A stretch of 64,000 nucleotides of DNA from Thermoanaerobaculia bacterium (GTDB lineage Bacteria > Acidobacteriota > Thermoanaerobaculia > Multivoradales > UBA5704): positions 12,319-76,318 of the forward strand of contig JBJMHA010000044.1 of NCBI GenBank assembly GCA_045807625.1. The letters run 5' to 3'. The notes under the pieces are model-generated. The model made no database searches. It had not been told where the DNA came from and saw only the letters and a program-made list of their open reading frames with translations. The position numbers and the translations under genes are program-made. Positions 1-64,000 of this stretch are shown piece by piece (the stretch's first letter is position 1; each line of letters opens with the position of its first letter).

Positions 1-592
1 CGGCCTGCTGCAACTCGGGATAGCGGACGCCGGCGGGCAGGACCCCCACGATGGTCTTCTCGCTGTTGTCGAGGCGGATCGTCTTGCCGATGATGGCGGG
101 ATCGCCGCCGAAGCGCCGTTTCCACAGACCGTGGCTGAGAATGATCACGGTCGGGCCCCCGGGTCCGTCCTCCTCGGCGGTGAAGTTCCGTCCGAGGGCC
201 GGCTCGACGCCGAGCAGAGGGAAGAAGTCGCGGTTGACGAACACCCCCATCAGCCGCTCCGGCTCGCCGCTGCCGGTCAGATTGGCGCTCTTGCCCCGGT
301 ACACCGCGAGCCGGGCGAAGACGCGGCTCTGGGCATGCCAGTCGAGGTAGTCGGCGGGCGACACCTGCCCCTCCGTCACCTCCTGCGTGAGATTGGTCCC
401 CCAGATCTTCACGATCCGTTCCGCGTGCGGATAGGGAAGCGGGCGGAGGAGAAGCGTATCGAAGACGCTGAAGACCGCGCTGTTGGCGCCGATCCCCAGC
501 GCCAGGGCCAGCACCGCTGAAAGCGCGAAGCCCGGGCTCCTGGCCAGCAGCCGGGCGGCGAAACGGAAATCCTGCCAGAGGTTTCTGAGCAT
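1..592 (-). CDS. MacB/FtsX-family ABC transporter permease, ADOP-like (acidobacterial duplicated orphan permease type); 5' part only, gene continues past the left edge
   Basis: Not in the ORF track because there is no stop in the window. Hand translation from ATG 592-590 gives MLRNLWQDFRFAARLLARSPGFALSAVLALALGIGANSAVFSVFDTLLLRPLPYPHAERIVKIWGTNLTQEV..YRGKSANLTGSGEPERLMGVFVNRDFFPLLGVEPALGRNF.., open to base 2. It shows an N-terminal TM helix plus the start of a MacB-type periplasmic domain. AGGAGG lies 4 nt upstream. Confidence 0.85.
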   Translation of the reverse strand, partial: MLRNLWQDFRFAARLLARSPGFALSAVLALALGIGANSAVFSVFDTLLLRPLPYPHAERIVKIWGTNLTQEVTEGQVSPADYLDWHAQSRVFARLAVYRGKSANLTGSGEPERLMGVFVNRDFFPLLGVEPALGRNFTAEEDGPGGPTVIILSHGLWKRRFGGDPAIIGKTIRLDNSEKTIVGVLPAGVRYPELQQA

Positions 593-596
593 CGAT

Positions 597-602
597 CCTC
601 CT
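597..602 (-). promoter_or_regulatory. Shine-Dalgarno (AGGAGG) for the permease gene
   Basis: Plus-strand cctcct at 597-602 is AGGAGG on the minus strand. It sits in the 11-nt gap between the NRPS stop (604-606) and ATG 592. Confidence 0.7.
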
Positions 603-603
603 A

Positions 604-3600
604 TCAATCCTCGTCCGTTCGCACGGTCCTGCCGAGGCACTCCGCGAGATGTGTGGCGACGGCCTGGACGAAAGGCTCCTGAAGCAGTGTCTCGTGGTGG
701 CCGGGGATCTCATGGATCTCCAGGGGCTGCTCCACCAGGCGGGACCACCCCTTGGTGAGGTCGTCGACCTCGTACCCGGCGCCGTGCAGCACGTCGAGGA
801 ATTCCCGATCCGCTTCCACGGTGCGAAAGAAGGTGACGGGCCCGGGATAGACCTCCGGCTGATAGCGCTCCGAAGCCAGGTCGCGGGCCTTGACCGCGGC
901 CAGGTAGCGCTCGACCCAGGGCAGGTCCAGCTCCTCGGGGACGAGGCCGGCCGCCTTGCCGTGGTCCAGGGCGAGCCGGATTCCTTCCTCCCGGGGGAGC
1001 GCCGTGATCTCCTCGAAGGAGATGACGAGGGGCACGCCCGCCCGGCGCGCCTGCTCGCGCAGCTCCTGGGCGACCAGGACCCCCTCGTTCAGGCGGCCCG
1101 ACTGCGCCTTGCGGCCCGGCGCTCCGCCGTCCAGCAGGGCGAGCAGGGCGAGCTCTTCGCCCGCGTGCCGGAGCTGCTGGGCCATCTCGAAGGCCACCTT
1201 GGCGCCGAACGAGTAGCCGCCGATGCGGTAGGGGCCCCGCGGCTGGACGATGCGGACAGCCTCGATGTACTGCCGCGCCAGGTCCTCGATCGCGAGCTCG
1301 CGGGAGCCGTCCCCGCTGCCCAGGTGGACCGCCTGCAGGCCGTAGAAGGGCTGGTCCGGCCCCAGGTGCTGGGAGAGGGCGTAGTAGCAGAGCACCTCGC
1401 CGCCGAGCGGATGCACACAGAAGAGGGGAGGCTTCGCACCGAGCGGCTGGATGGGCACCAGCGGCGACTCGGGAGCCCGCTCTCCCCCCTCGTCCGCGAG
1501 GATCCGGGCGAGCTTCTCCACCGTGCCCGCCCGGTAGAGGGTGGCGAGCGGGAGGGAGATCCCGAAGCGCTTGCGGATCTTGGCCATCAGCATCACCACC
1601 AGCAGCGAGTGGCCGCCCAGCGCGAAGAAGTCCTGGTCCACCCCGATCGGACGCATCTTGAGGAGGTCTTCCCAGATGTGCAGCAACTCGAGCTCGAGCA
1701 GCGTGCGGGGGGCGGCGGCCTCGCGGCGGGTCAGCTCCGGCCCGGCTCCCGGCTCCGGCAGCCGGGAGCGGTCGAGCTTGCCGTTGGGAGTCAGCGGCAG
1801 GGACTCCAACTCCACGAAGTGGGAGGGGACCATGTAGTCCGGCAGGTATTCCTTGAGCCAGCCCCGCAGCTCGGTCTCCGGCAGGCCGGGTCGACGGACG
1901 GCCAGGTAGGCGACCAGCCGGGTCTCTCCCGGTTCCTTCTGGCGGGCTGCGACGGCGACCTCCCGCACGTCGGGATGGCAGGCGAGAGCGGCCTCCACCT
2001 CGCCCATCTCGATCCGGAAGCCGCGGATCTTGACCTGGTGGTCGATGCGGCCCAGGAACTCCAGGTTGCCGTCGGGCCGCAGCCGGCCCAGGTCACCTGT
2101 GCGGTAGAGGCGCGAGCCCGGCTCCGGAGCGAAGGGATCGGGCAGGAACCGCTCGGCGGTCAGGTCCGGCCGGTGGAGGTAGCCGCGGGCCAGGCCGGCG
2201 CCCTCGATGCACAGCTCGCCGGGCGTGCCGGCGGGGACCAAGCCGCCCCGGGGATCGAGCAGCAGGACGCGGAGGTTGGGCAGCGGCCTGCCGAGCGGCA
2301 CCACGGCGCCGGCCCCCTGGGGCGGGACGGCGTCCACGCTGAAGGTCAGCGCTCCTACCGTGCTCTCGGTGGGGCCGTAGTGGTTGGCGATGGCGAGCTG
2401 CGGCGCCCGCGCCCGGAGGGACTCGACCTGCCCCCAGTAGCTCGCTTCACCACCGAGGATCAGCCGCCGCCGCGGCAGGGCGGGCGCCGGCCGGGAGGTC
2501 GACTGGAGCGCCATCAGATGGGAGGGCACGATCTTCAGGCAGTCGATCGGGTGGGCGGTGAAATAGTCCGCTGCCGCATCGGGATCGCCCGCTGTGCGCT
2601 CGGCGAGGACATGCAGGCAGCCGCCCGTCGCGAAGGCCGCGAAGACCGAGGTGTTGCCCAGATCGGCCGCAAAGGTGGACACCGTGGCGAACGAGGAGCA
2701 GGCGCCGAGCCCGAGACGGTGGATGACGCCGCCGACGTAGTTGACGATCTGCCGGTGCTCCACCGCCACCCCCTTGGGCGGGCCCGTGGAGCCCGAGGTG
2801 AACAGCACGTAGGCCAGACTCTCTGGGAAGAGCCCGGCCGGCCGCGGGGGCGCCTCCGGAGCGCGGGCGATCTTTGCGGCCCGGGTGTCCAGGCAGACCT
2901 TCTCGAAGGCCCCCGCGGGCAGCTCCTCGGCCAGCGCCGAGCGGGTCAGGACCACCCCGAGCCGCGCCGCCTCGATGGTCAGGCCCAGGCGCCGCTTCGG
3001 GTACATCGGGTCCATCGGTACGTAGGCGCCACCGCTCTTGAGCACGCCCAACAGGGCCACGACGAGATCGAGGGAGCGATCTAGGTAGAGGCCGACGGGG
3101 GTCTCCGGTCCCACCCCCAGCCCATGCAGGAGGTGCGCGACCTGGTTGGCCCGGCGGTCCAGGTCGCCGTAGGTCAGCGTCCGGCCGTCGGAGACCACGG
3201 CGGGGGCGTCGGCGTGGCGCTCCGCCTGGAGCTCGAAGAGCTCGTGCAGCAGGCCCGCCGGCGCCACGGGGGCTTCCGGCTCGCGCCAACCGGCGAGGAT
3301 CTGCTCGCGCTCGTCCGGGGTGAGCACCTCCAGGGTCGAGAGGGGGAGATCCGGATCGGCGAGAGCCGACTCCAGGAGCCGTGCGAAGCGTGCGTGGAGA
3401 CGCTCCACCGTCGCCACGTCGAACAGCTCGGCGGCGAACGCCCAGGCGCCGCTGAACGCCTCGCCCTCGGGCTGCACCGTCAGCATGAGGTCGAAACGCA
3501 CCAGCGTCTCGGCGAGCCCGAAGTCGCGGACGACCAGGGCCGACCGCAGGGGCTCCGCCGGAGGCTCGCCGGCGGCGCTGTTGTAGTTGAAGACCACCTG

Positions 3601-6600
3601 GAAGAGGGGGGAGTGGCTCGTCCCGCGTTCCGGCTTCAGCTCTTCGACCAGCTTGTCGAAGGGGAGGTCCTGATGGGCGATCCCCCCCACCGCTCCCTCG
3701 CGGACCCGGCGCAGCAGGGTGCCGAAATCGGGGTCGCCGGCGGCGTTCGTTCGCAGCACCAGCATGTTGATGAAGAACCCGATCAGATCCTCCACCTCCG
3801 ACCGCGTGCGCCCGGCCACGTCGGAGCCGACGACCACGTCGGCTTCGCCGGTGACGCGGTGGAGGAGGGCCACGAAGGCGGCCAGCAGGGTCATGAACGG
3901 CGTCGCCGAGTGGCGCAGGCTCACGGCCCGCACCGCGCGCGCGAGGGGCTCGTCGAGCCGGAACGGGGAGTACACGCCGCGGTGCGTGCGGACGGCGGGC
4001 TCGGGCCGGTCGGCGGGCAGGCGGAAGATCCCTTCCAGGTCCCCCAGCCGTCCGCGCCAGTACCGTAGCTGCGCCTCCAGCACCTCGCCCTGGAGCCACC
4101 GCCGCTGCCAGTGCGCGAAGTCGGCGTACTGCACGGGCAGCTCGCGCAGGGGGGAGGGGCGGCCGCTGGAGAAGGCGTGGTAGAGGCTCACCACCTCGTG
4201 GCGCAGGATGCCCATGGACCAGGCGTCGGAGGCGAGATGGTGCAGCGTCAGCAGCAACGCGTGCTCGCCGGCGGCGAGGCGCACGAGCTGCGCCCGCAGC
4301 AGCGGCTCGGCCGCGAGGTCGAAGGGGCGCCGGGCCGCAGCCACGGCGAGCCGTCGCGCCTCCTCCCCGCGGGGGGCCTCCGGCAGGCCGCTCAGGTCGA
4401 TCTGCGGCAGCGCGACCTCCGCGGCCGGACGGATCACCTGCCGCGGCTGCCCGTCGGCGGCGGGGAACAGGGTCCGCAGGATCTCGTGGCGCCGGACCAT
4501 TTCGCTCAGCACGCGGCGCAGAGCGACGGTCTCCAGCGGTCCGGACAGGCGCTGGAAGACCGGCACGTTATAGGCTGCGGACTCCGGTTCGAGCTGCTGC
4601 AGGAACCAGAGGCGCTGCTGGGCGAACGACAGGGGCAGCTCCTGGTCTCGCGGCACCGGCACGATGGGCGGCGCCTCCAGGCCCTCGCCGGCTCGTACGG
4701 CCCGCTCGATCTCGGCCGCGAGACGGCCCAGCACGGGCGCGTCGAACAGGCTGCGCAGCGGCAGGTCCACCTGGAAGGCCTCGCGGATGCGGGACAGCAC
4801 CTGGGTCGCGAGCAGCGAGTGCCCGCCCAGCTTGAAGAAGTCGTCGAAGACGCCGATCCCCGTCCGGCCGAGGGCCCCTTCCCAGATCTGCGCCAGCACC
4901 TCCTCGAAGACGTTGCGCGGGGCGACGTGCTCGCGCGCCGAATCCCCCTCGTCCTCGCGCGCCGCCAGAGCCGCGCGGTCGACCTTGCCGTTGCGCGTCA
5001 GGGGGAGGAAGTCGAGGATCGCGAACGAGGCGGGGATCATGTAGCCCGGCAGCCGGTCGCCGAGGAAGGCACGCAGGTCCTGCAGGTCGAGGGCTCCCCT
5101 TTCGCGCGCCACCAGGCAGGCAGCGAGGCGCAACTCGCCCGGCGTCCTCTCGCGCGTCACCACCACGGCCTGGGCCACCGCCGGGTGCTGGGCGAGCGCC
5201 GCTTCGATCTCCTCCAGCTCGATCCGGTAGCCGCGGACCTTGACCTGGAAGTCGCTCCGGCCGAGGAATTCGACCGTGCCGTCCGCGGCGCCGCGGGCGA
5301 GGTCGCCGGTCCTGTACATGCGCCCGCCGGGCACGGTGGAGAAGGGGTCGGGGACGAATCGCTCGGCGGTGAGGTCGGGACGGCCCAGATAGCCGCGGGC
5401 CACGCCGGCGCCGGCGATGTAGAGCTGGCCCGGAGCCATGACGGGCGCCGGCCGCAGATGGCGGTCGAGCAGATACGCGCGCGCGTTGGCGATCGGCCGG
5501 CCGATGGGAAGGGTACGGAAGAGATCCATCCCCTCGCCCGCGGTGGCGCGCCGGGTCAGGGCACCCACTGTGGTCTCCGTGGGGCCGTAGTGGTTGAGCA
5601 CCGCGCACTCCGTGCCGGCGGACAGCAGCTCCTCCGTCCACTCCCGGCGCGAAGCCTCGCCACCCAGCACCAGGAGACGGCGGGGCAGGGCCCAGGGCTG
5701 GCCGGCCGTCTGCAGGGCCTGGAGATGCGAGGGGACGATCTTCAGGCAGTCGATGGCATGGTCGCGCAGGTACCCGGCGAAGGCGCGCGGGTCGGTGGCG
5801 GCCTCCTGGGACAGGACGTGCAGCGTGCCGCCGTTCACCAGCGACGGGAACACGGAGGTGTAGCCCAGATCGGCCGCGAAGGTCGACACCATGGCGTACG
5901 AGGCGCCGTCCGGCAGTCCGAGGACCGCGCTGATGGCGCGCGCGTAGTTGGCGAGTTGGCGGTGCTCGACGGCCACTCCTTTCGGCCGGCCCGTGGAGCC
6001 CGAGGTGAAGATGACGTAGGCCAGGTTCTCTGGCCGCGCGCCGCCGTCGAAGGGGAGGCCGTCGTCCTCACCATTCTCGCTGCCGTCGTCCAGCGCCAGC
6101 AACTCGACGCCGGCCGCCGGCAACCGGTCCAGCAGCGCCCGCTCGGTGAGGACGATGCGCGCGCCGCTGTCCTCGATCATCGCCGCCAGGCGTTCGCGCG
6201 GCTGCGCCGGGTCGAGGGGGACGAAGGCGCCTCCGGCCTTGAGCACCGCCAGCGCCGCGACGATCATGCGTTGGGAGCGGTCGAGACAGACGACCGCCCT
6301 CTCCTCGGGCCGGACCCCCAGCGCGTGCAGCCGGCGGGCGAGCCGGTTGGCGGCGCCGTCGAGCTGGGAAAAGTCGAGCCAGGCCTCCACCGCGACGACG
6401 GCGGTCCGCCCGGGCACCCGCCGCGCCTGCCCGGCGAACAGGTGGTGGACGCAGGCGCCGCCGAAATCTCGCTCCTCGCTGCTCCAAGCCGCGAGGAGGC
6501 GGGCGCTTTCGGCTCCGGGCACGAGATCGAGCTCCCCGGCGGCGGCGGCGGGCCGGCGCGCTGCGTCCGCCAGCAGGGTGAGAAAGGCCTCCGCGAGGCG

Positions 6601-7794: not shown

Positions 7795-7800
7795 CGATGA

Positions 7801-7804
7801 CCTC
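7801..7804 (-). promoter_or_regulatory. Putative Shine-Dalgarno (GAGG) for the terminal NRPS
   Basis: Plus cctc is GAGG on the minus strand, 6 nt upstream of ATG 7794, inside the 24-nt intergenic gap 7795..7818. Confidence 0.5.
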
Positions 7805-7818
7805 GTTCTCGAAGCGGA

Positions 7819-8868
7819 TCAGGCGGCCATGGAGCTCTTCTCGAACAGCTCCCCCATGGCGACGACGATCTTGCGCTCGCCCTGGAACGGATTGCGGGCG
7901 TGCGCGGTGAGCATGTTATCCACCATCAGGATGTCCCCCTCCTGCCAGGGGAACTGGACGGCGTTCTGCCAGTAGAGATCCAGGATGTGCTGGACCAGGG
8001 AGTCTTCGATCGGCATGCCGTCGCCGTAGCAAACGCTGCGCGGCAGGCCATCCTTGCCCAGGAGCTCCTCCAGGGACTCGCGCACCCCGGGATCCAGGCA
8101 GGCGGCGTGGTGGAGCTGGATCTGGTTGAAGAACACCGTCTCGCCGGTCTTCGGATGCACCATAACAGCCGGCGCGGTCTGGCGCGTGCGCAGGCTCCCT
8201 TCCGGCGTCCATTCGAAGGCCAGGTCGGCGCGGTGGCAGTACTCCTCGACCGCGGACCGGTCGTCGGTGCGGAAGAAGTCCTGCCAGCTCACGTCGAGGC
8301 CCTCGACGAAATGCCGCACGTACATCAGACCCTTGTCCGCGAACCGCTGGCGCACCTCGGGAGCGAGCTGGGAGTAGATCCGCCGGCAGTCGACGATGGG
8401 GGTTTCGCCCCCCTCCCGGGATGGCGTGACGCAGTAGAACCACTGCATCATCGGCCACCGGTGCATGTGTGAGCTCTCGTTGTGGAACAGGATGGTCTTG
8501 TCGTTAGGATAGGGCGTCGACTTGTAGACCCTCTCGCCCTTGGCCTCGCGAGGCAGATCTCCATACTCGCCGAACAGGTTGGGGCAGATCGCCGCGGCGA
8601 ACGCCTCGAACGCGTTCACCGAGGCGAGGCCGAAACCGCGGAACAGGATGGCTCCGTGCCGCCGCAGCTTCTCGTCGAGGAACGCCGTGTTGGCGTGCGC
8701 CCAGCCCACGAGGTCCACGTCCTCCGTCGCGGGCTGGAGCACGAGCGGGAGCTCGGCGTCGTTGAGAGAGCTGGTCCGGACCAGCTCTTCGCCGGAGAAG
8801 GCGACCGCCTTCGGGGCCACCTTGGTGAACTTCTGGAACTTGTCGCGCAGATCGCCTGACTGCGTCAT
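7819..8868 (-). CDS. Fe(II)/2-oxoglutarate dioxygenase, TauD/TfdA family, SyrP-like NRPS-associated aminoacyl beta-hydroxylase (free-standing)
   Basis: 349-aa ORF with ATG 8868 and TGA 7819-7821. The facial triad H-x-E is in FHNESSH (codons 8476-8484), with the distal His in LTAHARNPF (7900-7902), followed by GERK. It shares blocks with the fused domain at 27969..28990: ILFRGFG, GGETPIVD, FPWQEGD and DN.LTAH.RNPF.GERK. Confidence 0.9.
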   Translation of the reverse strand: MTQSGDLRDKFQKFTKVAPKAVAFSGEELVRTSSLNDAELPLVLQPATEDVDLVGWAHANTAFLDEKLRRHGAILFRGFGLASVNAFEAFAAAICPNLFGEYGDLPREAKGERVYKSTPYPNDKTILFHNESSHMHRWPMMQWFYCVTPSREGGETPIVDCRRIYSQLAPEVRQRFADKGLMYVRHFVEGLDVSWQDFFRTDDRSAVEEYCHRADLAFEWTPEGSLRTRQTAPAVMVHPKTGETVFFNQIQLHHAACLDPGVRESLEELLGKDGLPRSVCYGDGMPIEDSLVQHILDLYWQNAVQFPWQEGDILMVDNMLTAHARNPFQGERKIVVAMGELFEKSSMAA

Positions 8869-8875
8869 GATCGGG

Positions 8876-8882
8876 TTCCTCC
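8876..8882 (-). promoter_or_regulatory. Shine-Dalgarno (GGAGGAA) for the hydroxylase gene
   Basis: Plus ttcctcc at 8876-8882, 7 nt upstream of ATG 8868, in the 42-nt gap 8869..8910 (the largest intergenic gap in the window). Confidence 0.65.
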
Positions 8883-8910
8883 GTTTGCGCGGGAGTCGGC
8901 CATTGCCGGC

Positions 8911-21303: not shown

Positions 21304-21320
21304 GCCCGTCCCTTCGACCC

Positions 21321-27949: not shown

Positions 27950-27954
27950 CTCTT

Positions 27955-27958
27955 CTCC
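27955..27958 (-). promoter_or_regulatory. Putative Shine-Dalgarno (GGAG)
   Basis: Plus ctcc at 27955-27958, 5 nt upstream of ATG 27949, in the 16-nt gap 27950..27965. Confidence 0.5.
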
Positions 27959-27965
27959 GCGCGGC

Positions 27966-55700: not shown

Positions 55701-58700
55701 TACACGACCCGGCCCGGCAGCGCGGGCGCGGAGCCGCCTGCCGCCTCCCGCAGGTCCAGGGTGCTGGTGAACACGATCGGGGTGATGGACCGCAGCCGGC
55801 CGCCCTGGCGGCTGGCCAGCTCCCGCATCACCTGCACGCCGCTGAAGTAGCGGTGGTCCAGATCGCTCCACAGCCGCTCCTGGAGCCGGCGGGCCCGGGC
55901 CTCGAAGGTCTCGGCCTCGCCGCGCTCCACGGTCAGCAGGGTGGTGGAGGTGAAGTCGCCCACCAGATCGTTCACCTGCCGGTGCAGGGGCAGCCGACCG
56001 AAGAGGGTCAGGACGAGGCTGAACCGGGGGCTGCGGGTCCAGATGCCCAGCACCTCCGAGAAGACGGCGAGGAGCAGGCCCGAGGGCGTGAGCCCAGCGG
56101 CGGCCCCCCGCGCCTTGAGCCGCCGCCAGGCCTCCGGCTCCAGCCGGGCCCTGCGGCGGGCGAAACGCTGCTCTGCGAGCAGGGCGGGGTCGCGCACCAG
56201 GGGGAGCTCCGGGCCGCCGGGGAGCGAAGGCAGCCGCTCCCGCCAATAGTCGCGGGCCCGCGTGTAGAGGTCCGACCCACGCAGGCGCTCCAGCGCCATC
56301 ACGTAGTCGCGGAACGACAGCTCCAGAGGCGGCAGGGTGGCCGCGGGATCGTGGTAGAGCCAAAGCAGCTCCCGCAGCAGGACCTGGAAGCTCCAGGCGT
56401 CGCCGATCAGGTAGTCGAAGCTGAAGAAGAGACGCACGCGCCCCTCCGCCAGCCGGCAGGTCCGGATCTCGAACAGCGGCCAGCGGTCGGTGCAGAAGAC
56501 CTGATGCGACAGCTCCTCCCGCAGGTCCGCCAGACGCATCTCCGCCACCGCCGCCGGCAGAACGGAGAGGTCCTCGGCCGCGATGGCGTAGGCGGGAACC
56601 TCGGTCAGGATGCGCTGTCGTCCGTCGGCGTCGACCACGGCACGGAGCATGCCGTGGCGGGCGATCAGGCACCGCCAAGCGTGGGCCAAGCGGTCGACGT
56701 CCAGGTCCTCGCTCTCCAGCTCCAGGTAGCGATGGGAGGCCACCTTGCCGAGCTCGATCGCGCCGGTGCGGCCGACCCAGTAGGCCTGCTGCACGTCGGT
56801 CATGGGGAAGGGAAGGCCGAGGTCCGCCGGAGCGGGCTCGATGCTGGGCAGTGTGGCGCCGTCTCCGGCGGGCCGTCCGAGGCGCTCTCGCAGGACCGTG
56901 GCGATCCCCGCGGCCGTGGGCGCCAGGAAGACTTCGCGCAGGGAGAGGCTCACGCCGAAGGCCGTTTCGACCTGCGCCAGCAGGCGGGCCGCCAGGAGGG
57001 AGTGGCCGCCCAGCTCGAAGAAGCTCGCGCTCCGGCCGACCCGCTCCCGACCCAGGAGCTCGGCGAGGATTTCGCAGACCACCTCCTCGATCGGATCCTG
57101 CAACGGGTCGACAGGCCCGGCCTCCGGAGCGGCGCTCCAGTCCGGCGCGGGCAGCCGGCGGCGGTCCAGCTTGCCGTTGGGCGTCAGCGGCAGGGCCGGC
57201 AACTCGACGAAGGCCGCAGGAACCATGTAATCGGGGAGCCGTTGGCCCAGGAAGGTCCGCAGCTCAGCGGCCGGCGGCGCCGTCGCATCGTTGGGGACGA
57301 CGTAGGCCGCCAGGCGCTTCTCTCCGGCCGCGGTCTCCAGCAGTAGCACCGCCGCCGTGAGTACCCGCGGATGCGCCGCGAGGGCCGCCTCGATCTCCCC
57401 CAACTCGATCCGGAAGCCGCGCAGCTTCACCTGCCCGTCCTTTCGGCCGGCGAACTCCACCGTGCCGTCCGGGAGGTAGCGCCCCAGGTCTCCCGTGCGG
57501 TAGAGCCTGTTGGCCAGGAAACGTTCGCGGGTCAGTGCCTCGTCCCCGAGATAGCCTTGGGAAAGATAGGGGGTCCGGATGTGGATCTCACCGCTCTCGC
57601 CGATGCCTGCGAGGTCTCCGGAGGCGTTGAGCACCAGGAGCTGGACCCCCTCGATGCCCCGGCCGACGGGTACCTCCTCGCGGCCGGACGGCGCTGCATC
57701 CAAAGGGAGCCAGCCCATGGCCTGAGGGGTCTCGGTGGCGCCGTAGAAGTTGACGCAGGCGGCGGCACCGGCCAGGCGCCGCAGCCCTTCGACGGTGCGC
57801 CGCCGCAGCAGGTCGCCGCCGAAGAACGCATGGCGCAGAGAGGGAACGCCGTTCTCCGCCGGAGCCGTGGCCAGGAGCTCGGCCAGAGCCGGGGTCAGGT
57901 GGGAGACGGTGACCCCCTGCCCGCCCATCCAGCCGGCGAGGCGCCTGCCGCTCTCCATCTCCTGCGCATCCGGGATGCACAGGGTCGCACCCACCCAAAG
58001 GGGGGTGAAGACATCGCGCAACAGCGGGTCGTGGGCGAGTCCCGAGAGCAGGCTGAAGCGGTCGTCTTCCGTCAGTCCGAAGGTGCGGGAGTGCCATCCC
58101 AGGAAGTGGGACAGCGGCCCGTGGCTGCCCAGGATCCCCTTCGGCTCGCCCGTCGATCCCGAGGTGAAGGCGACGTAGGCGAGGTCGTCCGGCCCGACCG
58201 CCACCTCACCGCAGTCCGGGAACGAGGCGAACGCGGCGCCGGCCGCGGCCGGCGTGCCCGGCAGGTCGATCCGGCAGCGCAGGGGGAGCCCGCTGAGCGC
58301 TTCCTCGACCTCGGCGGCCGGGGCGGGCGCGGCCTCCAGGCGCAGCCAGGCCACCGGCTTCGCCAGGCGGAGCGCGGCGGCCAGACGGGCCGGCGGATAG
58401 GCGGGATCGAGCACCGCGAACGCGGCTCCCGCGCGGTGGGCTCCGGCCAGCGCCAGGGCCAGGGCGGCGCTGCGGTGCGCCCACACGGCCACCACATCGC
58501 CGTGCCCCACGCCCGCTTCGCGCAGGCGGCCGGCGAGCCGGCCGGTGAGGGCGCCGAGCTCGGCGTAGGTCCACTCCCCCCGCCGGTCGGCCAGCGCCAC
58601 GTGCCGCGGTCGCCGGACCGCGTGGCGGGAGAGGGCCTGGTGTGCGGGCCCTGCCCAGACCGGCTCGATAGGCTGCTGCGGATCGGGGAGCACGGCGACG

Positions 58701-61700
58701 GCCTCGGGGGTCAGCAGCGACAGGCGATCGACCGGCCGGGCCGGGTCGGCGGCCGCCTGGGCCAGCACGGAGGCGAGCTGGCGCAGCATCTCCTCCACGC
58801 GTCCGGGGAGGAAGAGATCGGCGTTGTACACCAGATCGAGGCGGAGGCTGCCCTCCCGCTCGGCGGCGTAGAGCGTCAGGTCGAACTTGGAAGGCATCTC
58901 GCCGGAAGCGAGCGCCTTGAGCTTGCAGCCGGGCAGCCGCAGCTTGCGGGGCTCCAGGTTGAGCATGTTGAGGAAGACCTGGAACAACGGGGTGCGGCCC
59001 GCGTCGCGCTCCGGCTGTACCCGGGCGAGGATCGCCTCGAAGGGGACCTCCTGGTGGGCATAGGCCTCGATCGCCACCTCCCGAACCCGCGCCAGCAGAT
59101 CCTGGAAGGAGGGGTTCCCCGAGAGGTCGACGCGCAGCGCGAGCGTGCTCACGAACACGCCGATCATCCCCTCCACCTCGGGCTGCGTGCGGCCCGCCAC
59201 CGGCGAGCCGACGATCAGGTCCTTGGCGCCGCTCCAGCGGCGGAGCAGGATGGAGAAGCCGGCGAGGAGGACCATGAAGGGGGTCGCGCCGGAGCTTCGG
59301 GCGAGTTCCGTGAGGTCGCCGGTCAGGCCGAGCGGCAGGGTGAGGGAACGGCGTCCGCCGCGATAGGTCTGGACGCGCGGCCGCGGGAAGTCCGTGGGCA
59401 GGTCGAGCGGCGGCGGCGGATTCCCCAGACGAGCGGTCCAGTGCCCGAGCTCCCTCTCGAGGGTGTCGCCGCGCAGCCGGTCCCGCTGCCACTCCGCGAA
59501 GTCGGCGTACTGGAGCGGGAGATCCGGGAGGGACGGGGTCCCGCCGTCCAGCGCCGCCGGGTAGAGGGCGGTGATCTCGTCGATCAGGACCCCCACCGAC
59601 CAGCCGTCGGCCACGATGTGGTGGAGCGTGAGGAGGAGCCGGTGCTCGCTCTCGCAGAGCCGCAGGGCGGCGGCGCGGAAGAGCGGCCCCACCGCTAGGT
59701 CGAAGGGTCGGACGGCCTCCTCCGCGGCGAGGCGCGCCGCCTCCCGCTCGCGCCCGGCCGGCGGCAGCGCCGACAGGTCGACCACCTCCAGGCGCACCGG
59801 CGCGGAGGGCTCGACTCTCTGATAGGGGACTCCTGCCTCGTCACGGAAGACCGTGCGTAGGCTCTCGTGGCGGCGGACGACCTCGGCGAGGGCCCGCCCG
59901 AGAGCCTGGACGTCGAGCCGGCCGCGCAGGGCCACCGCGGCCGGCATGTTGTAGGCCGCGCCGGGCTCGAGCCGGTCGAGCAGCCAGAGCCTCTCCTGGG
60001 TGAAGGAGAGGCAGCCGCGCTCGCCGCGCTCCCGGGGGCGGAGCGGGGGCGCCTCGGCGGCCGCCTGGTAGGTGTCGAGCCGGGCGGCCATCTCCTCCAG
60101 CGTTGGGGCCTCGAACAGCTCCCGCAGCGGGGGATCGATTCGGAAGGTCTGGCGGATCCGCGCCAGCAGCCGCGTCGCCATGAGGGAGTGCCCGCCGAGC
60201 TCGTAGAAGTCGTCGTCGACGGCGATGGCGACGGGGTCGCGCCGCAGGAGACCGGCCCAGAGGACCGCGAGGGCCGCCTCCGTGGGGGTGCGGGGCGCCA
60301 CGGCGGACGAGGTCCGGCCCGCTCGGGTGCCGTGGCGCTCGGGGAGGGCTTGGCGGTCGATCTTGCCGTTCGGCGTCAGGGGGAGTTCCGGCACCAGGAG
60401 GATGTCGCCCGGCACCATGGGATCGGGCAGAGCGCCGACGAGGTGCTGGCGCAGCTCCTCCGGAGTCGCGGCTCCGTTCAGGGTCACGTAGGCCACCAGC
60501 CGCGCGCCGCTCCCCGGCTCGTCCTCCACCGCGAGCACGGCGGCCTGGCGCACGGCGGGGTGGGCGCCCAGGGCCACCTCGACCTCGCCGGGCTCCACCC
60601 GGAAGCCGCGGATCTTGACCTGGAAGTCGATCCGGCCGAGGAACTCCAGGTCCCCGGAGGGGAGGAGCCGCCCGCGGTCGCCGGTGCGGTAGAGGCGGCT
60701 CCCCGGCTCGTCCGCCAGCGGGTCCGGCACGAAGCGCTCGGCGGTGAGGTCGGGCCGGCCCAGGTAGCCGCGCCCGACGCCCACCCCGCCGACGTAGATC
60801 TCGCCGGGGGCCCCCTTCGGCACCGGCCGCAGGTCGCCGTCGAGCAGGACAACGCGCAGGTTGGTGACGGGGCGGCCGATGGGGGGCGCGGACTCCCCCT
60901 CCTCGCCCGGCGTCAGCACGGCGAAGGTGCTGACCACGGTGACCTCCGAGGGGCCGTACAGGTTCACCAGCACGAACGGCAGCTCGGGCCGCAGCCAGCG
61001 ATGGAGCCGGTCACCGCCGGTGGCCAGGACCCGCAGGGACAGCCCCTCCTCCGGCAGCGGCTCCTCCATGGCCGCCTCGGCGACCGGCGTCGAGAGGAAG
61101 CCGAGCGTGATCCGTTCCTCCGCCATCCAGCGCCAGAGGGCGGCGGGAGAGCGCTGGAGGTCGCGGTCCACGCAGTGGAGCGACGCTCCGGCGCACAGGG
61201 GGGGCCAGAGGTCGAGAATCGAGACGTCGAAGGCCGGACCGGCGAGCTGCGTCACCCGGTCCGAGGGGGCCATCCGGCAGGTCTCCAGGTACCAGTCGGT
61301 CAGGTTGGCCAGCCCGGCGTGGGTCAACAGGGACCCCTTGGGCCGTCCGGTCGATCCCGAGGTGTAGATGACGTAGGCGGCGGCCTCCGGCGGCACCTCG
61401 ATCCCCAGCCCCTCCCCGCCCGGATGCCCCGGCTCCGGCGGTCCCCCCGCCTCGTCCAGGGAGAGGACGGGCACCCCCTCGGGGGCCACGCCGCGCAGGG
61501 CGGGGCTGGTCACCAGCGCGGCCACCGACGCGTCTTCCAGGGTCAGCGCCAGGCGCTCGGCCGGATGGGCCGGATCGAGCGGGAGATAGGCGGCGCCGGC
61601 CTTGAGCGCGGCGAGGCAGGCGACCACCCGCTCCGGGCAGGGCTCGAAGAGCACCCCCACGACCCGGTCGGGGCCGGCGCCCCGGGCGCGCAGCTCGCGG

Positions 61701-64000
61701 GCCACGCGGTTGGCCCAGCGGTCCAGGGCGGCGTAGGTCAGCCGGCGGCCTCCGTGTGCTACCGCCAGCGCGCCCGGAGCCCGCCGCGCCCGCTCCTCGA
61801 TGCGCCTGTACACCGGCACCGGAGCCGGGCGTCCGCCCTGCGCCTCGGCCGCCGCCCCACCCTCGACGACCAACTCGCCGATCTCCGCCGAGCTGAGGAG
61901 GGGGAGGTCGGTGAGCCGGGTGCCGGGTGCCGCGGCGGCGCCGCGCAGGAGCTCCGCGAAGTGGGCGAGGATCCGCCTCGCCGTGGCCCGCTCGAAGCGG
62001 TCGGTGCTGTATTCCAGCAGCAGGCTCAGGCTCTCCCCCTCTCCCAACGTCACCAGGCTGAGGTCGAACTTCGAGGTGCCGTGCTCGAGGCTCCGCAGCT
62101 GCGTCGAGAGGCCCGGGAGCCGCAGGGCGAGAGAGGTCTCCTGGTGCGCGAAGATGGCCTCAAACAGCGCCTTGCGGCCGGCGCCACGGCCGGGGCGCAG
62201 CTCCTCCACCAGCAGCTCGTAGGGCACGTGCCGGCGCTCGTGCGCGGCGAGGGCGCTCTCACGCACCCGGGCGATCAGCTCGGCGAACGGCTGGTCGCCG
62301 AACGGGCGGGCGCGCATCACCAGCATGTTCACGAAGAACCCGATCAGCCCCTCGAGCTCGCGGCGGTCACGCTGGGCGACCGGCGTGCCGATGGCGAAGT
62401 CGCGCTGGCCGGTATAGCGGTAGAGGAGGGCCTGGAACGCCGCGAGCAGGACCATGAAGCGGGTGGCCCCGGCCTGGCTCGCCAGCTCCTCCAGCCTGCC
62501 GACGGTCTCCGGCGCGAGCGCCAGGGTCTCGACGGCGCCCCGCGAGCGGGCGGCGGCGGGGCGTGCGTGGTCGGCCGGCAGCTCGAGGGCCGGCAGCTCC
62601 GCCAGGCGGTCCCGCCACCAGGCGAGCGGGTGGGTGAGGGTCTCGGGGGTGAGCGTCCGCCGCTGCCACACCGCGAAGTCGGCGTACTGGACCGGCAGCT
62701 CCGGCAGGGGGGGCTCCGGGACGCCGGCGGCGAGGCCGGCATAGAAGGTCTCGAGCTCGCGCAGGAACAGCTCGACGGAGCCGCCGTCGGCCACCAGGTG
62801 ATGGACGGTCAGCAGGAGAGCCGATCGGCTGGCGGAGCACTGGACCACCCTCGCCCGCAACATCGGTCCGGTCTCGACATCGAAGGGGCGGACCGCCTCC
62901 TCGCGGCTCAGGCGGTCGAGCTCGGCGGCGGCCCGGTCCGCCCGGAGATGGCGGAGGTCGATCCGGGGAATCTCCAGGCCGGCGGCCGGAGGGGTGGCGA
63001 TCTGAGAGGGCTCCTCGCTGAGGAGCGGGAAGCGGGAGCGCAGCACCTCGTGGCGGCGGACGATGTCCCGCAGGGCGCCGGCCAGGGCCGGCAGGTCGAG
63101 CGGCCCGTCGATCTCCAGGACGACCGGCATGTTGTACGACGCGCTGTCCGGCTCCAGCCGGGCGAGGAACCAGAGCCGCCGCTGGACCAGCGACAGCGGC
63201 ATGGCGCCGTCGCCCGGGCGAGGGACCGGCAGGACCGGCGGCAGCTCGGAGGCGGGCCCGCCGCCGCGCAGCTCCATCACGCGGCCGGCCAGGGCCTCGA
63301 CGGTGGGGGCCTCGAAGAGCGCGCGCAGCGGCAGGTCGACGCCGAGCGTCTCGCGGATGCGGGAGGCCACCCGCACGGCGGCCAGGGAGTGGCCGCCCAA
63401 CTCGAAGAAGTCTACGTCGCGGTCGGGGCGCGGGACGCCGAGCGTCTCGGACCAGAAGCCGGCGATCAGCTCCTCCACGGGCCCCTGGAGGAGGGCGGCG
63501 CCCCCGGCGCCCGTCTCGCGCTCGGGCTGCAGGGCCGCCAGGGCCCGGCGGTCGATCTTGCCGGTGGTCGTCAGCGGCATCTCGCCCAGCACGGTGAAGG
63601 TGGCGGGGACCATGTAGGACGGCAGGTGGCGGCCCAGGGCGGCCCGGACCTCCTCCAGAGCGCCGGCCGCCGCCGAGGGCTCGGGCACCAGGAACGCGGC
63701 CAGGGCGGCGTCGCCGGTGCCGTCCTGGCGGGCCACGACGACGGCCTGGCGCACCGCCGGATGCGCGCGCAGCGCCTCCTCGATCTCCCCCAGCTCGATG
63801 CGGAAGCCGCGGACCTTGACCTGATGGTCGATCCGGCCGAGGTAGTCGAGGTCGCCGTCCGGCCGGTGGCGCGCCAGGTCTCCGGTCCGGTAGAGCCGGC
63901 CGCCCGGCTCCCGTCCGAAGGGATCGGGGAGGAAACGCTCGGCGGTGAGGTCGGGACGGTCCAGATACCCGCGCGACAGGCCGGCGCCGCCCAGGAAGAG
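52757..64000 (-). CDS. NRPS, 5'-truncated by the window edge: ..A-T-C-A-T-C-A-T-Cy-A(Cys)[Ox]-T
   Basis: The track ORF is 52757..63754, but the same frame stays open to 64000. There it reads LFLGGAGLSRGYLDRPDLTAERF..LYRTGDLAR..QVKVRGFRIELGEIE (A-domain cores A7-A8), so the gene starts beyond the window. Four carriers, two C domains, one Cy domain and an oxidase insert are visible. Confidence 0.93.
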   Translation of the reverse strand, partial: LFLGGAGLSRGYLDRPDLTAERFLPDPFGREPGGRLYRTGDLARHRPDGDLDYLGRIDHQVKVRGFRIELGEIEEALRAHPAVRQAVVVARQDGTGDAALAAFLVPEPSAAAGALEEVRAALGRHLPSYMVPATFTVLGEMPLTTTGKIDRRALAALQPERETGAGGAALLQGPVEELIAGFWSETLGVPRPDRDVDFFELGGHSLAAVRVASRIRETLGVDLPLRALFEAPTVEALAGRVMELRGGGPASELPPVLPVPRPGDGAMPLSLVQRRLWFLARLEPDSASYNMPVVLEIDGPLDLPALAGALRDIVRRHEVLRSRFPLLSEEPSQIATPPAAGLEIPRIDLRHLRADRAAAELDRLSREEAVRPFDVETGPMLRARVVQCSASRSALLLTVHHLVADGGSVELFLRELETFYAGLAAGVPEPPLPELPVQYADFAVWQRRTLTPETLTHPLAWWRDRLAELPALELPADHARPAAARSRGAVETLALAPETVGRLEELASQAGATRFMVLLAAFQALLYRYTGQRDFAIGTPVAQRDRRELEGLIGFFVNMLVMRARPFGDQPFAELIARVRESALAAHERRHVPYELLVEELRPGRGAGRKALFEAIFAHQETSLALRLPGLSTQLRSLEHGTSKFDLSLVTLGEGESLSLLLEYSTDRFERATARRILAHFAELLRGAAAAPGTRLTDLPLLSSAEIGELVVEGGAAAEAQGGRPAPVPVYRRIEERARRAPGALAVAHGGRRLTYAALDRWANRVARELRARGAGPDRVVGVLFEPCPERVVACLAALKAGAAYLPLDPAHPAERLALTLEDASVAALVTSPALRGVAPEGVPVLSLDEAGGPPEPGHPGGEGLGIEVPPEAAAYVIYTSGSTGRPKGSLLTHAGLANLTDWYLETCRMAPSDRVTQLAGPAFDVSILDLWPPLCAGASLHCVDRDLQRSPAALWRWMAEERITLGFLSTPVAEAAMEEPLPEEGLSLRVLATGGDRLHRWLRPELPFVLVNLYGPSEVTVVSTFAVLTPGEEGESAPPIGRPVTNLRVVLLDGDLRPVPKGAPGEIYVGGVGVGRGYLGRPDLTAERFVPDPLADEPGSRLYRTGDRGRLLPSGDLEFLGRIDFQVKIRGFRVEPGEVEVALGAHPAVRQAAVLAVEDEPGSGARLVAYVTLNGAATPEELRQHLVGALPDPMVPGDILLVPELPLTPNGKIDRQALPERHGTRAGRTSSAVAPRTPTEAALAVLWAGLLRRDPVAIAVDDDFYELGGHSLMATRLLARIRQTFRIDPPLRELFEAPTLEEMAARLDTYQAAAEAPPLRPRERGERGCLSFTQERLWLLDRLEPGAAYNMPAAVALRGRLDVQALGRALAEVVRRHESLRTVFRDEAGVPYQRVEPSAPVRLEVVDLSALPPAGREREAARLAAEEAVRPFDLAVGPLFRAAALRLCESEHRLLLTLHHIVADGWSVGVLIDEITALYPAALDGGTPSLPDLPLQYADFAEWQRDRLRGDTLERELGHWTARLGNPPPPLDLPTDFPRPRVQTYRGGRRSLTLPLGLTGDLTELARSSGATPFMVLLAGFSILLRRWSGAKDLIVGSPVAGRTQPEVEGMIGVFVSTLALRVDLSGNPSFQDLLARVREVAIEAYAHQEVPFEAILARVQPERDAGRTPLFQVFLNMLNLEPRKLRLPGCKLKALASGEMPSKFDLTLYAAEREGSLRLDLVYNADLFLPGRVEEMLRQLASVLAQAAADPARPVDRLSLLTPEAVAVLPDPQQPIEPVWAGPAHQALSRHAVRRPRHVALADRRGEWTYAELGALTGRLAGRLREAGVGHGDVVAVWAHRSAALALALAGAHRAGAAFAVLDPAYPPARLAAALRLAKPVAWLRLEAAPAPAAEVEEALSGLPLRCRIDLPGTPAAAGAAFASFPDCGEVAVGPDDLAYVAFTSGSTGEPKGILGSHGPLSHFLGWHSRTFGLTEDDRFSLLSGLAHDPLLRDVFTPLWVGATLCIPDAQEMESGRRLAGWMGGQGVTVSHLTPALAELLATAPAENGVPSLRHAFFGGDLLRRRTVEGLRRLAGAAACVNFYGATETPQAMGWLPLDAAPSGREEVPVGRGIEGVQLLVLNASGDLAGIGESGEIHIRTPYLSQGYLGDEALTRERFLANRLYRTGDLGRYLPDGTVEFAGRKDGQVKLRGFRIELGEIEAALAAHPRVLTAAVLLLETAAGEKRLAAYVVPNDATAPPAAELRTFLGQRLPDYMVPAAFVELPALPLTPNGKLDRRRLPAPDWSAAPEAGPVDPLQDPIEEVVCEILAELLGRERVGRSASFFELGGHSLLAARLLAQVETAFGVSLSLREVFLAPTAAGIATVLRERLGRPAGDGATLPSIEPAPADLGLPFPMTDVQQAYWVGRTGAIELGKVASHRYLELESEDLDVDRLAHAWRCLIARHGMLRAVVDADGRQRILTEVPAYAIAAEDLSVLPAAVAEMRLADLREELSHQVFCTDRWPLFEIRTCRLAEGRVRLFFSFDYLIGDAWSFQVLLRELLWLYHDPAATLPPLELSFRDYVMALERLRGSDLYTRARDYWRERLPSLPGGPELPLVRDPALLAEQRFARRRARLEPEAWRRLKARGAAAGLTPSGLLLAVFSEVLGIWTRSPRFSLVLTLFGRLPLHRQVNDLVGDFTSTTLLTVERGEAETFEARARRLQERLWSDLDHRYFSGVQVMRELASRQGGRLRSITPIVFTSTLDLREAAGGSAPALPGRVVYGVSQTPQVLLDHQAAERQGSLVLNWDAVEEVFPPGYLDEMFEAYQAFLGRLADGDGWQERSFRLVTGSQLAPRNAANDTAAPIPPGLLHEPFADQVRRNPDRIAVICGERVLTYGELDQRAEALAQTLRALGTRPNRLVGVVMEKGWEQTVAVFAILRAGGAYLPIDAELPQERLWYLLRQGEVEVAITQPRFDAELEWPEEVRRIAVDPAPPAAPVAHAPQPPQDPEDLAYVIFTSGSTGVPKGVMTDHRGALNTLVDLNERFAIGEEDRVLGLSALNFDLSVYDIFGLLAAGGALVLPDPGERRDPSRWERLLLDHRVTVWNTVPALMEMLVEYLEGCGRPMPPSLRLVMISGDWIPVGLPARIRTLAPDICVRSLGGATEASIWSILYPIGEVDPSWRSIPYGKAMVNQTFHVLDERLDPSPTWVPGELYIGGIGLAKGYWRDPEKTARSFITHPATGERLYRTGDLGRYLPSGDIEFLGREDFQVKVQGHRIELGEIESALLQHPDVRTAVVNPVGSGTSRRLVAYVVPERHPEPPSRAAGPAPPAPAPLPPPEGQAEGGRLDPLQALEFKLGQPSLRREPDRPLLPFSRQNGDFDLLEAYERRRSRRSFSPAALSASRLGGMLLQLAQVPLASRRLPGHLYASAGSLYPVQVYLHLKPGAVEGLPAGTYYYNPAEHALVPLVEGALIDRDAHSPVNRAVADAAGLILLLVGDLDAIAPVYGDMARDFCLLEAGYVGQLLMTTSLESGIGLCPVGRMDFEPLRLLFDLKPSHCFLHAFLAGPVDETASPAAVSGRPASAGEDLSGRLRRFLAGKLPHYMVPTAFLLLDTLPLTSNGKVDRRALPEPDLHGETTGGGHLPAENDVERSILEVWKRVLQLETVGRHDNFFELGGNSVTMIQVYNQLREILGGDIPLVTLFEHPTASSLARHLSDREGVADAVGVERGQDRADRRREAARQKEQRRRPRPGMPEDPTDE
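52900..53110 (-). other. Peptidyl carrier (T) domain
   Basis: NFFELGGNSVT; Ser codon at 53006-53008. Confidence 0.9.
53165..55480 (-). other. Adenylation domain, hand-read code DLYNMSLIWK (Cys; 9 of 10 identical to DLYNLSLIWK), interrupted by an oxidase insert
   Basis: Cores TSGSTGVPKG (~54962-55015), NFDLSVYD, TVWNTVPA, MISGDWIP, SLGGATEASIW and QVKVQGHRIELGEIE (~54195-54245). After the insert comes LPLTSNGKVDR (~53165-53205). Confidence 0.8.
53340..54000 (-). other. FMN-dependent oxidase (Ox, nitroreductase-like) domain inserted between A-domain cores A8 and A10
   Basis: About 220 aa: RRSRRSF..GHLYASAGSLYPVQVYL..GTYYYNPAEHAL..LLEAGYVGQLL..GLCPVG. The placement is as in EpoB/MtaD-type thiazole-forming modules. 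Confidence 0.8.
55500..56815 (-). other. Heterocyclization (Cy) domain
   Basis: FPMTDVQQAYWVGR start; DxxxxD motif FDYLIGDAWS (codons 56399-56416) in place of HHxxxDG. Confidence 0.88.
56895..57105 (-). other. Peptidyl carrier (T) domain
   Basis: SFFELGGHSLL; Ser codon at 56999-57001. Confidence 0.9.
57160..58680 (-). other. Adenylation domain with an HDP-type A4 core, hand-read code DPRHFGFQAK (unassigned)
   Basis: Cores FTSGSTGEPKG (~58135-58185), LSGLAHDPLLRDVFTPL, VTVSHLTPA, AFFGGDLL, NFYGATETPQAMG and LPLTPNGKLDR. Confidence 0.7.
58710..60045 (-). other. Condensation (C) domain, canonical
   Basis: LSFTQERLWLLDRLEP; HHIVADGWS (codons 59603-59623). Confidence 0.85.
60080..60290 (-). other. 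Peptidyl carrier (T) domain
   Basis: DFYELGGHSLM; Ser codon at 60185-60187. Confidence 0.9.
60350..61850 (-). other. Adenylation domain, hand-read code DVLFAGLVVK (unassigned, hydrophobic pocket)
   Basis: Cores AAYVIYTSGSTGRPKG (~61330-61385), PAFDVSILD, ITLGFLSTP, LATGGDRL, NLYGPSEVTVV and LPLTPNGKIDR. Confidence 0.65.
61890..63225 (-). other. Condensation (C) domain
   Basis: MPLSLVQRRLWFLARLEP; HHLVADGGS (codons 62783-62803). Confidence 0.85.
63280..63490 (-). other. Peptidyl carrier (T) domain
   Basis: DFFELGGHSLA; Ser codon at 63386-63388. Confidence 0.9.
63545..64000 (-). other. C-terminal part of an adenylation domain (N-terminal part lies outside the window)
   Basis: GYLDRPDLTAERF, LYRTGDLAR, QVKVRGFRIELGEIE, LPSYMVPATF and MPLTTTGKIDR, all read in the CDS frame. 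Confidence 0.85.

Follow-up and report, generated by a model that had tools for sequence, protein, structure and literature searches.

The window analysed here, a stretch of 64,000 nucleotides from contig JBJMHA010000044.1 of a Thermoanaerobaculia bacterium, has a GC content of 71% and is filled almost from end to end by ten large, co-directional minus-strand open reading frames (ORFs), designated g0 to g9, that cover positions 604–64000 and encode a hybrid nonribosomal peptide synthetase–polyketide synthase (NRPS–PKS) with 16 carrier domains. Within this assembly line, g4, g5 and g6 carry a hydroxylase, an inactive condensation-like domain and a dehydrating type of condensation domain that together probably make an undescribed dehydro-asparagine residue. 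With the start codons of g1 and g6 corrected to ATG 52764 and ATG 24740, respectively, the gene junctions in the operon measure −8 to +42 nt, the reading frames are uninterrupted over 63 kb and the called frames have a third-position GC content of 0.86–0.92. Plus-strand ORFs were considered as genes and rejected, as all are antisense to this high-GC coding sequence. Domains were called with Pfam and NCBIfam profiles, supplemented by phmmer mapping within the window. The start of the line is out of view because the g0 frame stays open to the right window edge. Taken as a whole, the explanation that we consider likely is that the window is almost entirely one intact, translationally coupled operon for a hybrid NRPS–PKS assembly line that is colinear and has 16 or more modules. 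Its features, in the order of the line, are as follows.

g0, 52757..64000, minus strand: A1 (partial)-T1-C-A2-T2-C-A3-T3-Cy-A4(Cys, Ox)-T4, modules 1-4 (Pfam, domain map, motifs, codes)
g1, 41536..52764, minus strand: KS-AT(HAFH)-KR-DH-T5-C(HHILMDA)-Cx-A6(Thr)-T6-C(HHIISDR), modules 5-6 and the C domain of module 7 (Pfam, motifs, code)
g2, 37022..41539, minus strand: I(PALCADL)-A7(Asn code)-T7-E, module 7
g3, 30758..37021, minus strand: DCL-type C-A8(Gln)-T8-C(HHIVSDG)-FkbH, covering module 8 plus, for the A-less glycerate module 9, its catalytic part
g4, 27966..30764, minus strand: T9-C(HHIAGDG)-TauD, where T9 serves the glycerate module, C belongs to module 10 and TauD is a fused β-hydroxylase of the Asn type
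g5, 24737..27949, minus strand: I(SALTADA)-A10(Asn)-T10, module 10
g6, 21321..24740, minus strand: CmodAA-type C-A11(Asn)-T11, module 11
g7, 8911..21303, minus strand: KS-AT(HAFH)-KR-T12-C-A13-T13-C-A14-T14-C, modules 12-14 and the C domain of module 15
g8, 7819..8868, minus strand: free-standing TauD-family Fe(II)/2-oxoglutarate hydroxylase with an HNE...H triad, flanked by the last C domain of g7 and the I domain that opens g9
g9, 604..7794, minus strand: I(PVLCADE)-A15(Asp)-T15-C(HHLASDA)-A16(Asp)-T16-TE(GYSFG), modules 15-16 and release
Putative permease gene of the ADOP family (MacB-like), 5' part, 1..592, minus strand: ATG at 592, 11 nt past the g9 stop, with a GGAGGA ribosome-binding site upstream

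This layout and the profile calls bear out much of what the original prediction had read from the letters by hand, namely ten same-strand genes with 16 carrier domains in colinear order, a start beyond the window, a Cy–A(Ox)–T module, two KS–AT(HAFH)–KR modules (one with a DH), an FkbH module, fused and free-standing TauD hydroxylases, an E domain and a TE. The software did not contradict that hand annotation on the points at which it was most exposed: FkbH and Ox were found, and the active HHxxxDG motif is absent from the interface-like domains. The C-like domains without this motif, counted previously as three or four, number four, each missing both His residues: Cx of g1 (PALALDG), and the domains of g2 (PALCADL), g5 (SALTADA) and g9 (PVLCADE). 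Cx (44854–45843) is interface-like and truncated, with its N-terminal third missing. All 16 PP-binding domains keep the carrier Ser, there are 12 complete A domains and one partial one, and the single TE is in g9. The one E domain, in g2, has the motifs HHLLTDA, EGHGR, RTVGWF and FNYLG, with E2 and E4–E7 present, and the first C domain of g3 is best matched by post-E C domains across many other loci.

The C domain that opens g6 (23193–24596) matches, end-to-end, the CmodAA domains of McyA (PDB 8jbr, 345 bits) and AmbE (7r9x, 211 bits), with the next PDB match at 129 bits, and its identities to these two (39% and 35%, respectively) compare with about 28–29% or less to the other C domains in the window. 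Domains of the dehydrating CmodAA clade are marked by a [K/R]SVLLAAH motif before C5, an invariant DG and an Arg at the start of C6; of 50 CmodAA domains, 7 have lost the first His of the active site and 48 have the motif His (PMC11342130). In the g6 domain, with its motifs EPHPISDG, KSVLLASY and YRQYP, the K of the clade motif, the catalytic second His, the DG and the first C6 Arg are kept, and the first His is Pro (EPH). By homology this domain belongs to the CmodAA clade, although Tyr in place of His makes one position atypical. It directly follows T10, the carrier of an Asn module that a TauD hydroxylase and an interface domain are predicted to serve. Patteson et al. (2022) are reported to have found that CmodAA domains work on the residue that the donor carrier bears, and the donor-bound residue for the g6 domain would therefore be that on T10 of g5. 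The TauD fused to g4, positioned by the inactive interface domain of g5, would hydroxylate Asn on T10, and the g6 CmodAA domain would then dehydrate the donor-bound β-OH-Asn while condensing it with the next Asn, yielding dehydro-Asn. Likeness to the CmodAA domains of McyA, AmbE, AlbB and Crz1-C2 extends from the end-to-end homology (to McyA and AmbE) to the K of the motif, the DG, the C6 Arg and the position right after the carrier of a residue that, in the window, is predicted to be β-hydroxylated. The AMB pathway offers a further parallel, as the hydroxyl is put in there by an Fe/2-oxoglutarate oxygenase, an enzyme type that works with CmodAA in that pathway (PMC10880069). Unlike in all of these systems, the substrate in g6 would be β-OH-Asn made in cis by a TauD/interface pair. 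The literature searches turned up no example of this, and nothing relevant on hydroxylase and CmodAA logic beyond AMB.

The hydroxylase fused after the C domain in g4 (28005–28868; PF02668, 156 bits) and the product of g8 (Pfam, 166.9 bits), encoded by its own gene, have the same fold and the same HNE...H triad and are 45.7% identical. Each is followed by a module that opens with a His-less C-like domain, SALTADA in g5 and PVLCADE in g9, and these are designated interface (I) domains from the absence of the HHxxxDG His pair and from their position. The A-domain code in the partner module is Asp for g9 (DLTKVGHVGK) and Asn for g5, as it is for g2. In related loci the TauD subtype follows the A code, the g4 type occurring with Asn in 12 of 12 cases and the g8 type with Asp in 9 of 10, with a Glu code as the exception. 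This sole break in the pairing of g8 type with Asp is a TauD-I-A arrangement at positions 11702–15769 of locus L012, with the Glu code DAKDLGVVDK. Since the g8 type pairs with Asp in this way and is mostly in-line in the related loci, where the in-line TauD domains are 54–59% identical to g8, sequence relationships identify g8 as the unfused copy of the Asp-pairing, interface-partnered hydroxylase type. With the I domain of g9, it would make β-OH-Asp on T15.

A C–TauD–I–A–T layout, the known arrangement for integrated hydroxylases, is widespread, occurring in Streptomyces, Ktedonobacteraceae, Nostocales, Chloroflexia and many Acidobacteriota. As in the cupriachelin, alterobactin and pyoverdine GB-1 systems, g4 ends in a TauD that is fused behind a C domain, and the next NRPS, g5, opens with a His-less C-like domain followed by A–T; the junction of g7, g8 and g9 has the same layout, but with the hydroxylase on its own gene. 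The window differs from these systems in that the partner A domain at the g4/g5 junction is Asn- and not Asp-coded, in the lack of a siderophore context, in two more I-like domains, in g2 and g1, that have no neighbouring hydroxylase, and in that one hydroxylated residue passes to a CmodAA domain. The I domain of g2 (40217–41488) precedes an Asn-coded A domain and then an E domain, Cx of g1 precedes the Thr-coded A domain, neither has an adjacent hydroxylase and none is encoded at the g1/g2 junction. Either of these two domains may recruit a hydroxylase in trans. When the I domains were compared, mutual identities were 30–39% without partner-specific clustering, and the g2 domain was not placed with the hydroxylase-partnered ones. 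I-like domains before Thr-, Asn-, Gln- and Tyr-like-coded A domains without an adjacent TauD are also present in L001 (positions 2595 and 7193), L082 (1071), L084 (1091), L114 (1094), L093 (126) and L096 (1802). Together with the g2 and g1 domains, they suggest a wider docking role for the interface domain than the one known for Asp and His hydroxylases.

The related loci number 116, of which 80 came from a scan of species genomes with g4 and 36 more from a scan of metagenomes with an alignment of three CmodAA domains; all were annotated with the window's own domains as queries and their A-domain codes were read. Inspection of the 37 modules directly upstream of a CmodAA domain revealed an I domain in 17 of the 18 that are Asn- or Gln-coded and in 1 of the 19 that are Ser- or Thr-coded (Fisher p = 2e-8). 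Of these 17, 14 have a TauD immediately before the I domain (two beyond a split I call), and L088 and L111 show none. Ser and Thr have a native β-hydroxyl and need nothing extra, whereas Asn and Gln modules bring a hydroxylase, which is the pattern expected if CmodAA consumes the newly made hydroxyl, and the association supports a predicted sequence of hydroxylation followed by dehydration to dehydro-Asn. Loci L001, L033, L082–L086, L097, L110, L114 and L116 share with the window the block C–TauD(g4 type)–I–A(Asn)–T–CmodAA; variants of it occur in L087, whose I call falls into two parts, and in L089, which has two TauD domains in tandem. In L089 (876–3001) one of the tandem TauD domains is of the g4 type and one of the g8 type, and both precede a single I-A(Asn)-T-CmodAA. 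Three contigs from soil with a GC content of 0.55–0.60, L093 (5611–10010), L104 (5994–10007) and L109 (613–4823), have a TauD of the g8 type and a Gln code in the order TauD-I-A(Gln, DAWQ.GLIDK)-T-CmodAA, which carries the cassette logic over to Gln. Two actinomycete proteins, P0133 from Streptomyces pacificus and P0130 from Phytohabitans flavus, are NRPSs of consecutive CmodAA-A-T modules that may make runs of dehydro residues.

The A-domain assignments rest on canonical Stachelhaus codes and are internally consistent across the 116 related loci. The codes read from the window are listed below.

A2 (60362–61795, g0): DVLFAGLVVK
A3 (57170–58615, g0): DPRHFGFQAK, with HD in place of FD in core A4
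A4: DLYNMSLIWK, Cys
A6: DFWNIGMVHK, Thr
A7: DLTKIGEVGK, Asn
A8: DAWQFGLIDK, Gln
A10 and A11: DLTKVGEVGK, Asn
A13: DIWESTADNK, which resembles what we take to be the code for Dab
A14: DAEEIGCITK, with acidic pocket residues that suggest a basic substrate
A15: DLTKVGHVGK, Asp
A16: DLTKIGHVGK, Asp

For A2 and A3, a search for PDB similarity returned generic NRPS A-domain matches only and was uninformative. The Cys, Thr, Gln, Dab-like and basic-looking positions agree with the codes read by hand previously, and the five Asx positions resolve into three with an Asn code (modules 7, 10 and 11) and two with an Asp code (modules 15 and 16). Read colinearly, these codes predict the chain X1–X2–X3–thiazole–C2 enoyl–Thr–D-Asn–Gln–glycerate–[Asn → β-OH-Asn → 2,3-dehydro-Asn]–Asn–C2 β-hydroxy–Dab-like–basic–β-OH-Asp–Asp, which the TE would free through hydrolysis or macrocyclisation. 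The description of the product in the original prediction as very acidic and metal-chelating-looking, with several α-hydroxy-carboxylate ligands, is not supported by this reading. Because only modules 15 and 16 have an Asp code and modules 7, 10 and 11 have the Asn code DLTK[IV]GEVGK, the predicted product combines two Asp with three positions derived from Asn and two residues that are probably basic, and is not very acidic. One β-OH-Asp is predicted as a ligand of that type; β-OH-Asn is not an α-hydroxy-carboxylate. The (OH)Asx-Asx assigned to modules 10 and 11 is more likely dehydro-Asn–Asn, the dehydrating nature of the g6 C domain having been missed.

The only non-synthetase gene in the window, immediately downstream of g9, encodes the putative ADOP-family permease. 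Its 198 residues within the window match TIGR03434 (ADOP) with 243 bits over profile positions 1–188, where the cut-off for the full-length profile is 622, and PF12704, the MacB periplasmic core domain, with 78.9 bits, above the cut-off. This permease is a probable exporter whose gene, judging by the arrangement, would be transcribed together with those of the synthetase. Within the window there is no gene for a receptor or for uptake, be it a TonB-dependent receptor, a periplasmic binding protein or a reductase. An ADOP gene is also located beside NRPS-PKS genes in another Acidobacteriota locus, L044 (1614–2186), which hints at a lineage-typical exporter.

Several observations weigh against dehydration at position 10 and the wider account built on it. 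The motif His of the g6 domain is replaced by Tyr (KSVLLASY) and the second C6 Arg by Gln, and the domain might only condense. The same TauD–I–A(Asn)–T block is followed by an ordinary LCL domain in L002, L007, L014, L036, L040 and L048, so that hydroxylation alone does not imply dehydration. The loci counted are phylogenetically non-independent: L085 and L110 look near-identical, and L001, L082, L084 and L114 constitute one family. Searches of the literature within reach gave no nonribosomal peptide with dehydro-Asn or dehydro-Asp. The line's loading end is beyond the window, as would be any genes acting in trans, the A2, A3, A13 and A14 codes are unassigned or only tentatively matched, and, beyond domain identity, the predicted product depends throughout on colinearity. 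If the N-terminal domain of g6 were an ordinary condensation domain and position 10 stayed β-OH-Asn, the two substitutions, the intact catalytic second His and DG, and the retention of β-OH-Asn by other lines through LCL domains would all be accommodated, but the domain aligns end-to-end with the CmodAA domains of McyA and AmbE with scores far above any ordinary C domain, and the association of I and TauD domains with Asn- and Gln-coded modules (17/18 versus 1/19) is hard to explain if CmodAA ignores the hydroxyl; we regard this alternative as unlikely, though of some weight. A different fate for β-OH-Asn on the CmodAA domain, such as the conjugate addition or heterocycle formation associated with bleomycin-type subclades, has precedent in known subclades that carry out conjugate addition, pyrimidine formation and pyrrolizidine formation (PMC11342130), and a distinctive motif, TEPH.I.DGWST, is common to the CmodAA domains located after Asn modules. 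Such chemistry is nevertheless decidedly improbable here, as CmodAA domains for conjugate addition lack both His residues and g6 keeps the second, and the Asn-following domains are 45–51% identical to each other versus 46–47% to the Thr-following domain in L001.

Formation of dehydro-Asn by the g4–g5–g6 block is, therefore, the reading that we prefer. Its extension is more tentative: it is somewhat less than an even call that C–TauD, I–A(Asn)–T and CmodAA constitute a widespread uncharacterised cassette, mainly in high-GC NRPS lines from soil (acidobacterial-type), that would install α,β-dehydro-Asn, or dehydro-Gln where the module is Gln-coded, by β-hydroxylation then dehydration, and, jointly with this, that the I-like domains before Thr-, Gln- and Tyr-coded A domains are general docking sites for trans-acting tailoring enzymes. 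If true, dehydro-amino-acid formation would extend from Ser and Thr to Asn (and Gln in related loci), structure-prediction tools should call such positions dehydro and not β-hydroxy, and NRPS engineers would gain a portable route to electrophilic dehydro residues at non-Ser/Thr positions. A siderophore or metallophore, in which the thiazole and several α-hydroxy-carboxylate ligands chelate iron, would be in keeping with the predicted β-OH-Asp of module 15, the neighbouring Asp and the thiazole, and it was in siderophore clusters that TauD/interface pairs, for which antiSMASH 8 has a standard profile today, were originally defined, as PMC12230676 states, citing Reitz et al. 2019. An Asp code is, however, present at only two of the five Asx positions, of which just one is hydroxylase-served, the sole accessory gene in the window encodes an exporter-type permease and not a receptor, binding protein or reductase, and the TauD–I block is also present in many long, lipopeptide-like lines of Streptomyces, cyanobacteria and Chloroflexota that do not look like siderophore systems. 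Typical β-OH-Asp siderophores, moreover, come from lines much shorter than the at least 16 modules here. For these reasons the siderophore reading is weak and we judge it quite improbable; an exported bioactive depsipeptide is more likely, and TauD/interface pairs should not be taken as siderophore markers. That the locus is decayed or a chimeric product of assembly and makes no compound might be entertained given an uncultured source and an identical sequence not recovered elsewhere, but is barely credible with frames uninterrupted over 63 kb, third-position GC in the range stated above, all catalytic motifs and all 16 carrier Ser intact, and consistent junctions at which the E domain is followed by a DCL-type C domain and each TauD by an I domain. 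Exact look-ups of g8, g4 and the self hit P0001 gave no match, nor did a 50-nt exact search of JGI metagenomes; in the protein collection, the window's own proteins all lie on one contig of 126,733 nt.

The depsipeptide character of the predicted product stems from module 9. FkbH (30938–31897, in g3) scores 304.8 bits against TIGR01686, with a cut-off of 146.65, and has the HAD motif DCDGTL; its carrier, T9, opens the next protein, g4. FkbH would load a glyceryl unit from 1,3-bisphosphoglycerate onto T9, and the C domain ahead of FkbH would then couple the peptidyl chain to the glycerate hydroxyl. Glycerate has no amine, and this bond would therefore have to be an ester. A C–FkbH–T module, in which FkbH replaces the A domain, is known in cystomanamide and vioprolide biosynthesis, and the vioprolide C domain is ester-forming (PMC8949500). 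The window shares with these Cystobacter systems an FkbH in the place of the A domain, glycerate loading onto a T domain and, with vioprolide, a neighbouring C domain that in the window is predicted to form an ester. It differs in that the module follows Gln and precedes Asn in the middle of the chain and that two proteins share it (C–FkbH and T–C–TauD). The split of C–FkbH from T also occurs in an uncharacterised metagenome locus, L081. Two cyanobacterial loci, L007 (8830–13870, Nostoc) and L064 (8855–14105, Pelatocladus), have the order FkbH-C-TauD-I-A(Asn), with no carrier detected between FkbH and C, and the neighbourhood of FkbH and TauD is thus not unique to the window; the FkbH domains of these two loci are 26–27% identical to that in g3.

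The line is a new orphan hybrid NRPS–PKS of an ordinary class, in which all unusual parts have precedent, with one possibly new cassette. The features that the original prediction had considered unusual together are indeed present, but their rarity was overstated, as each has been described before (PMC8949500 for C–FkbH–T, PMC12230676 for the TauD/interface pair). Its statement that the line maps to no characterised pathway holds, as the searches brought up no counterpart that is close or has been characterised. For g3, the top full-length match in 5.8 billion proteins has 41% identity and is encoded by L081, the only locus with a full-length one; for g4, the nearest relative in 185,579 species genomes reaches 51%. 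At the domain level no relative exceeds about 55% identity, none is characterised and the closest are from uncultured organisms, the top homologues being in metagenome-assembled genomes (MAGs) of Pyrinomonadaceae and Thermoanaerobaculia. The nearest locus, L001, is from an uncultured Acidobacteriota MAG with a GC content of 0.72 and has the same block order within DH–T–C–I–A–T–C–I–A–T–C–TauD–I–A(Asn)–T–CmodAA–A(Thr)–T–CmodAA–A–T–C. Together with L082, L084 and L114, also from Acidobacteriota, it resembles the window in GC content (0.72–0.76), in domain identities of 45–55% and in the order (PKS DH–T)–C–I–A–T–C–…–C–TauD–I–A(Asn)–T–CmodAA–A–T. Unlike the window, these four lines are without the E, Gln and FkbH modules and have Gln-coded I-modules and a second CmodAA domain; they have no known product. 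These relatives and the ADOP gene point, though indirectly, to an uncultured high-GC member of the Acidobacteriota as the most likely source of the window. What chiefly makes the window valuable is that it shows the hydroxylase–interface–CmodAA cassette cleanly and in full; otherwise it adds one more orphan megasynthase from an uncultured soil lineage, useful for genome mining.

Both PKS modules are KS–AT–KR, with a DH in that of g1. The two KS domains have the Cys-His-His set and the two AT domains GHSxG and HAFH, and the active-site motifs of the g1 module are TACST/HGTGT/HAFH/HRVLGSSILP. The HxxxGxxxxP motif and the Asp of HPALLD are intact in the g1 DH domain, but its position is after the KR (KS-AT-KR-DH-T), not between AT and KR. 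Neither the LDD nor the W motif, sought for stereochemistry, was found in the KR domains and no call was made. The DH-after-KR order (47953–49950 in the window) is also present in locus L012 (19128–21654) from a Blastocatellia MAG, and L001 opens with DH-T-C (8–1039). The Ox domain of the thiazole module is a nitroreductase-family insert at 53372–53884 (PF00881, 36.6 bits versus a cut-off of 23.5), between A8 and A10 of the Cys A domain. With the DxxxxD motif of Cy, the Cys code DLYNMSLIWK and an FMN-type oxidase at this position, the module corresponds to the Cy–A(Ox)–T thiazole modules of EpoB, MtaC/MtaD and bleomycin biosynthesis, with no notable difference. A second line family that joins the cassette and thiazole modules is present in L085, L097 and L110 (about 9600–21000), in which TauD-I-A(Asn)-T-CmodAA is followed by A-T-KS-AT-T-Cy-A(Ox)-T-Cy.

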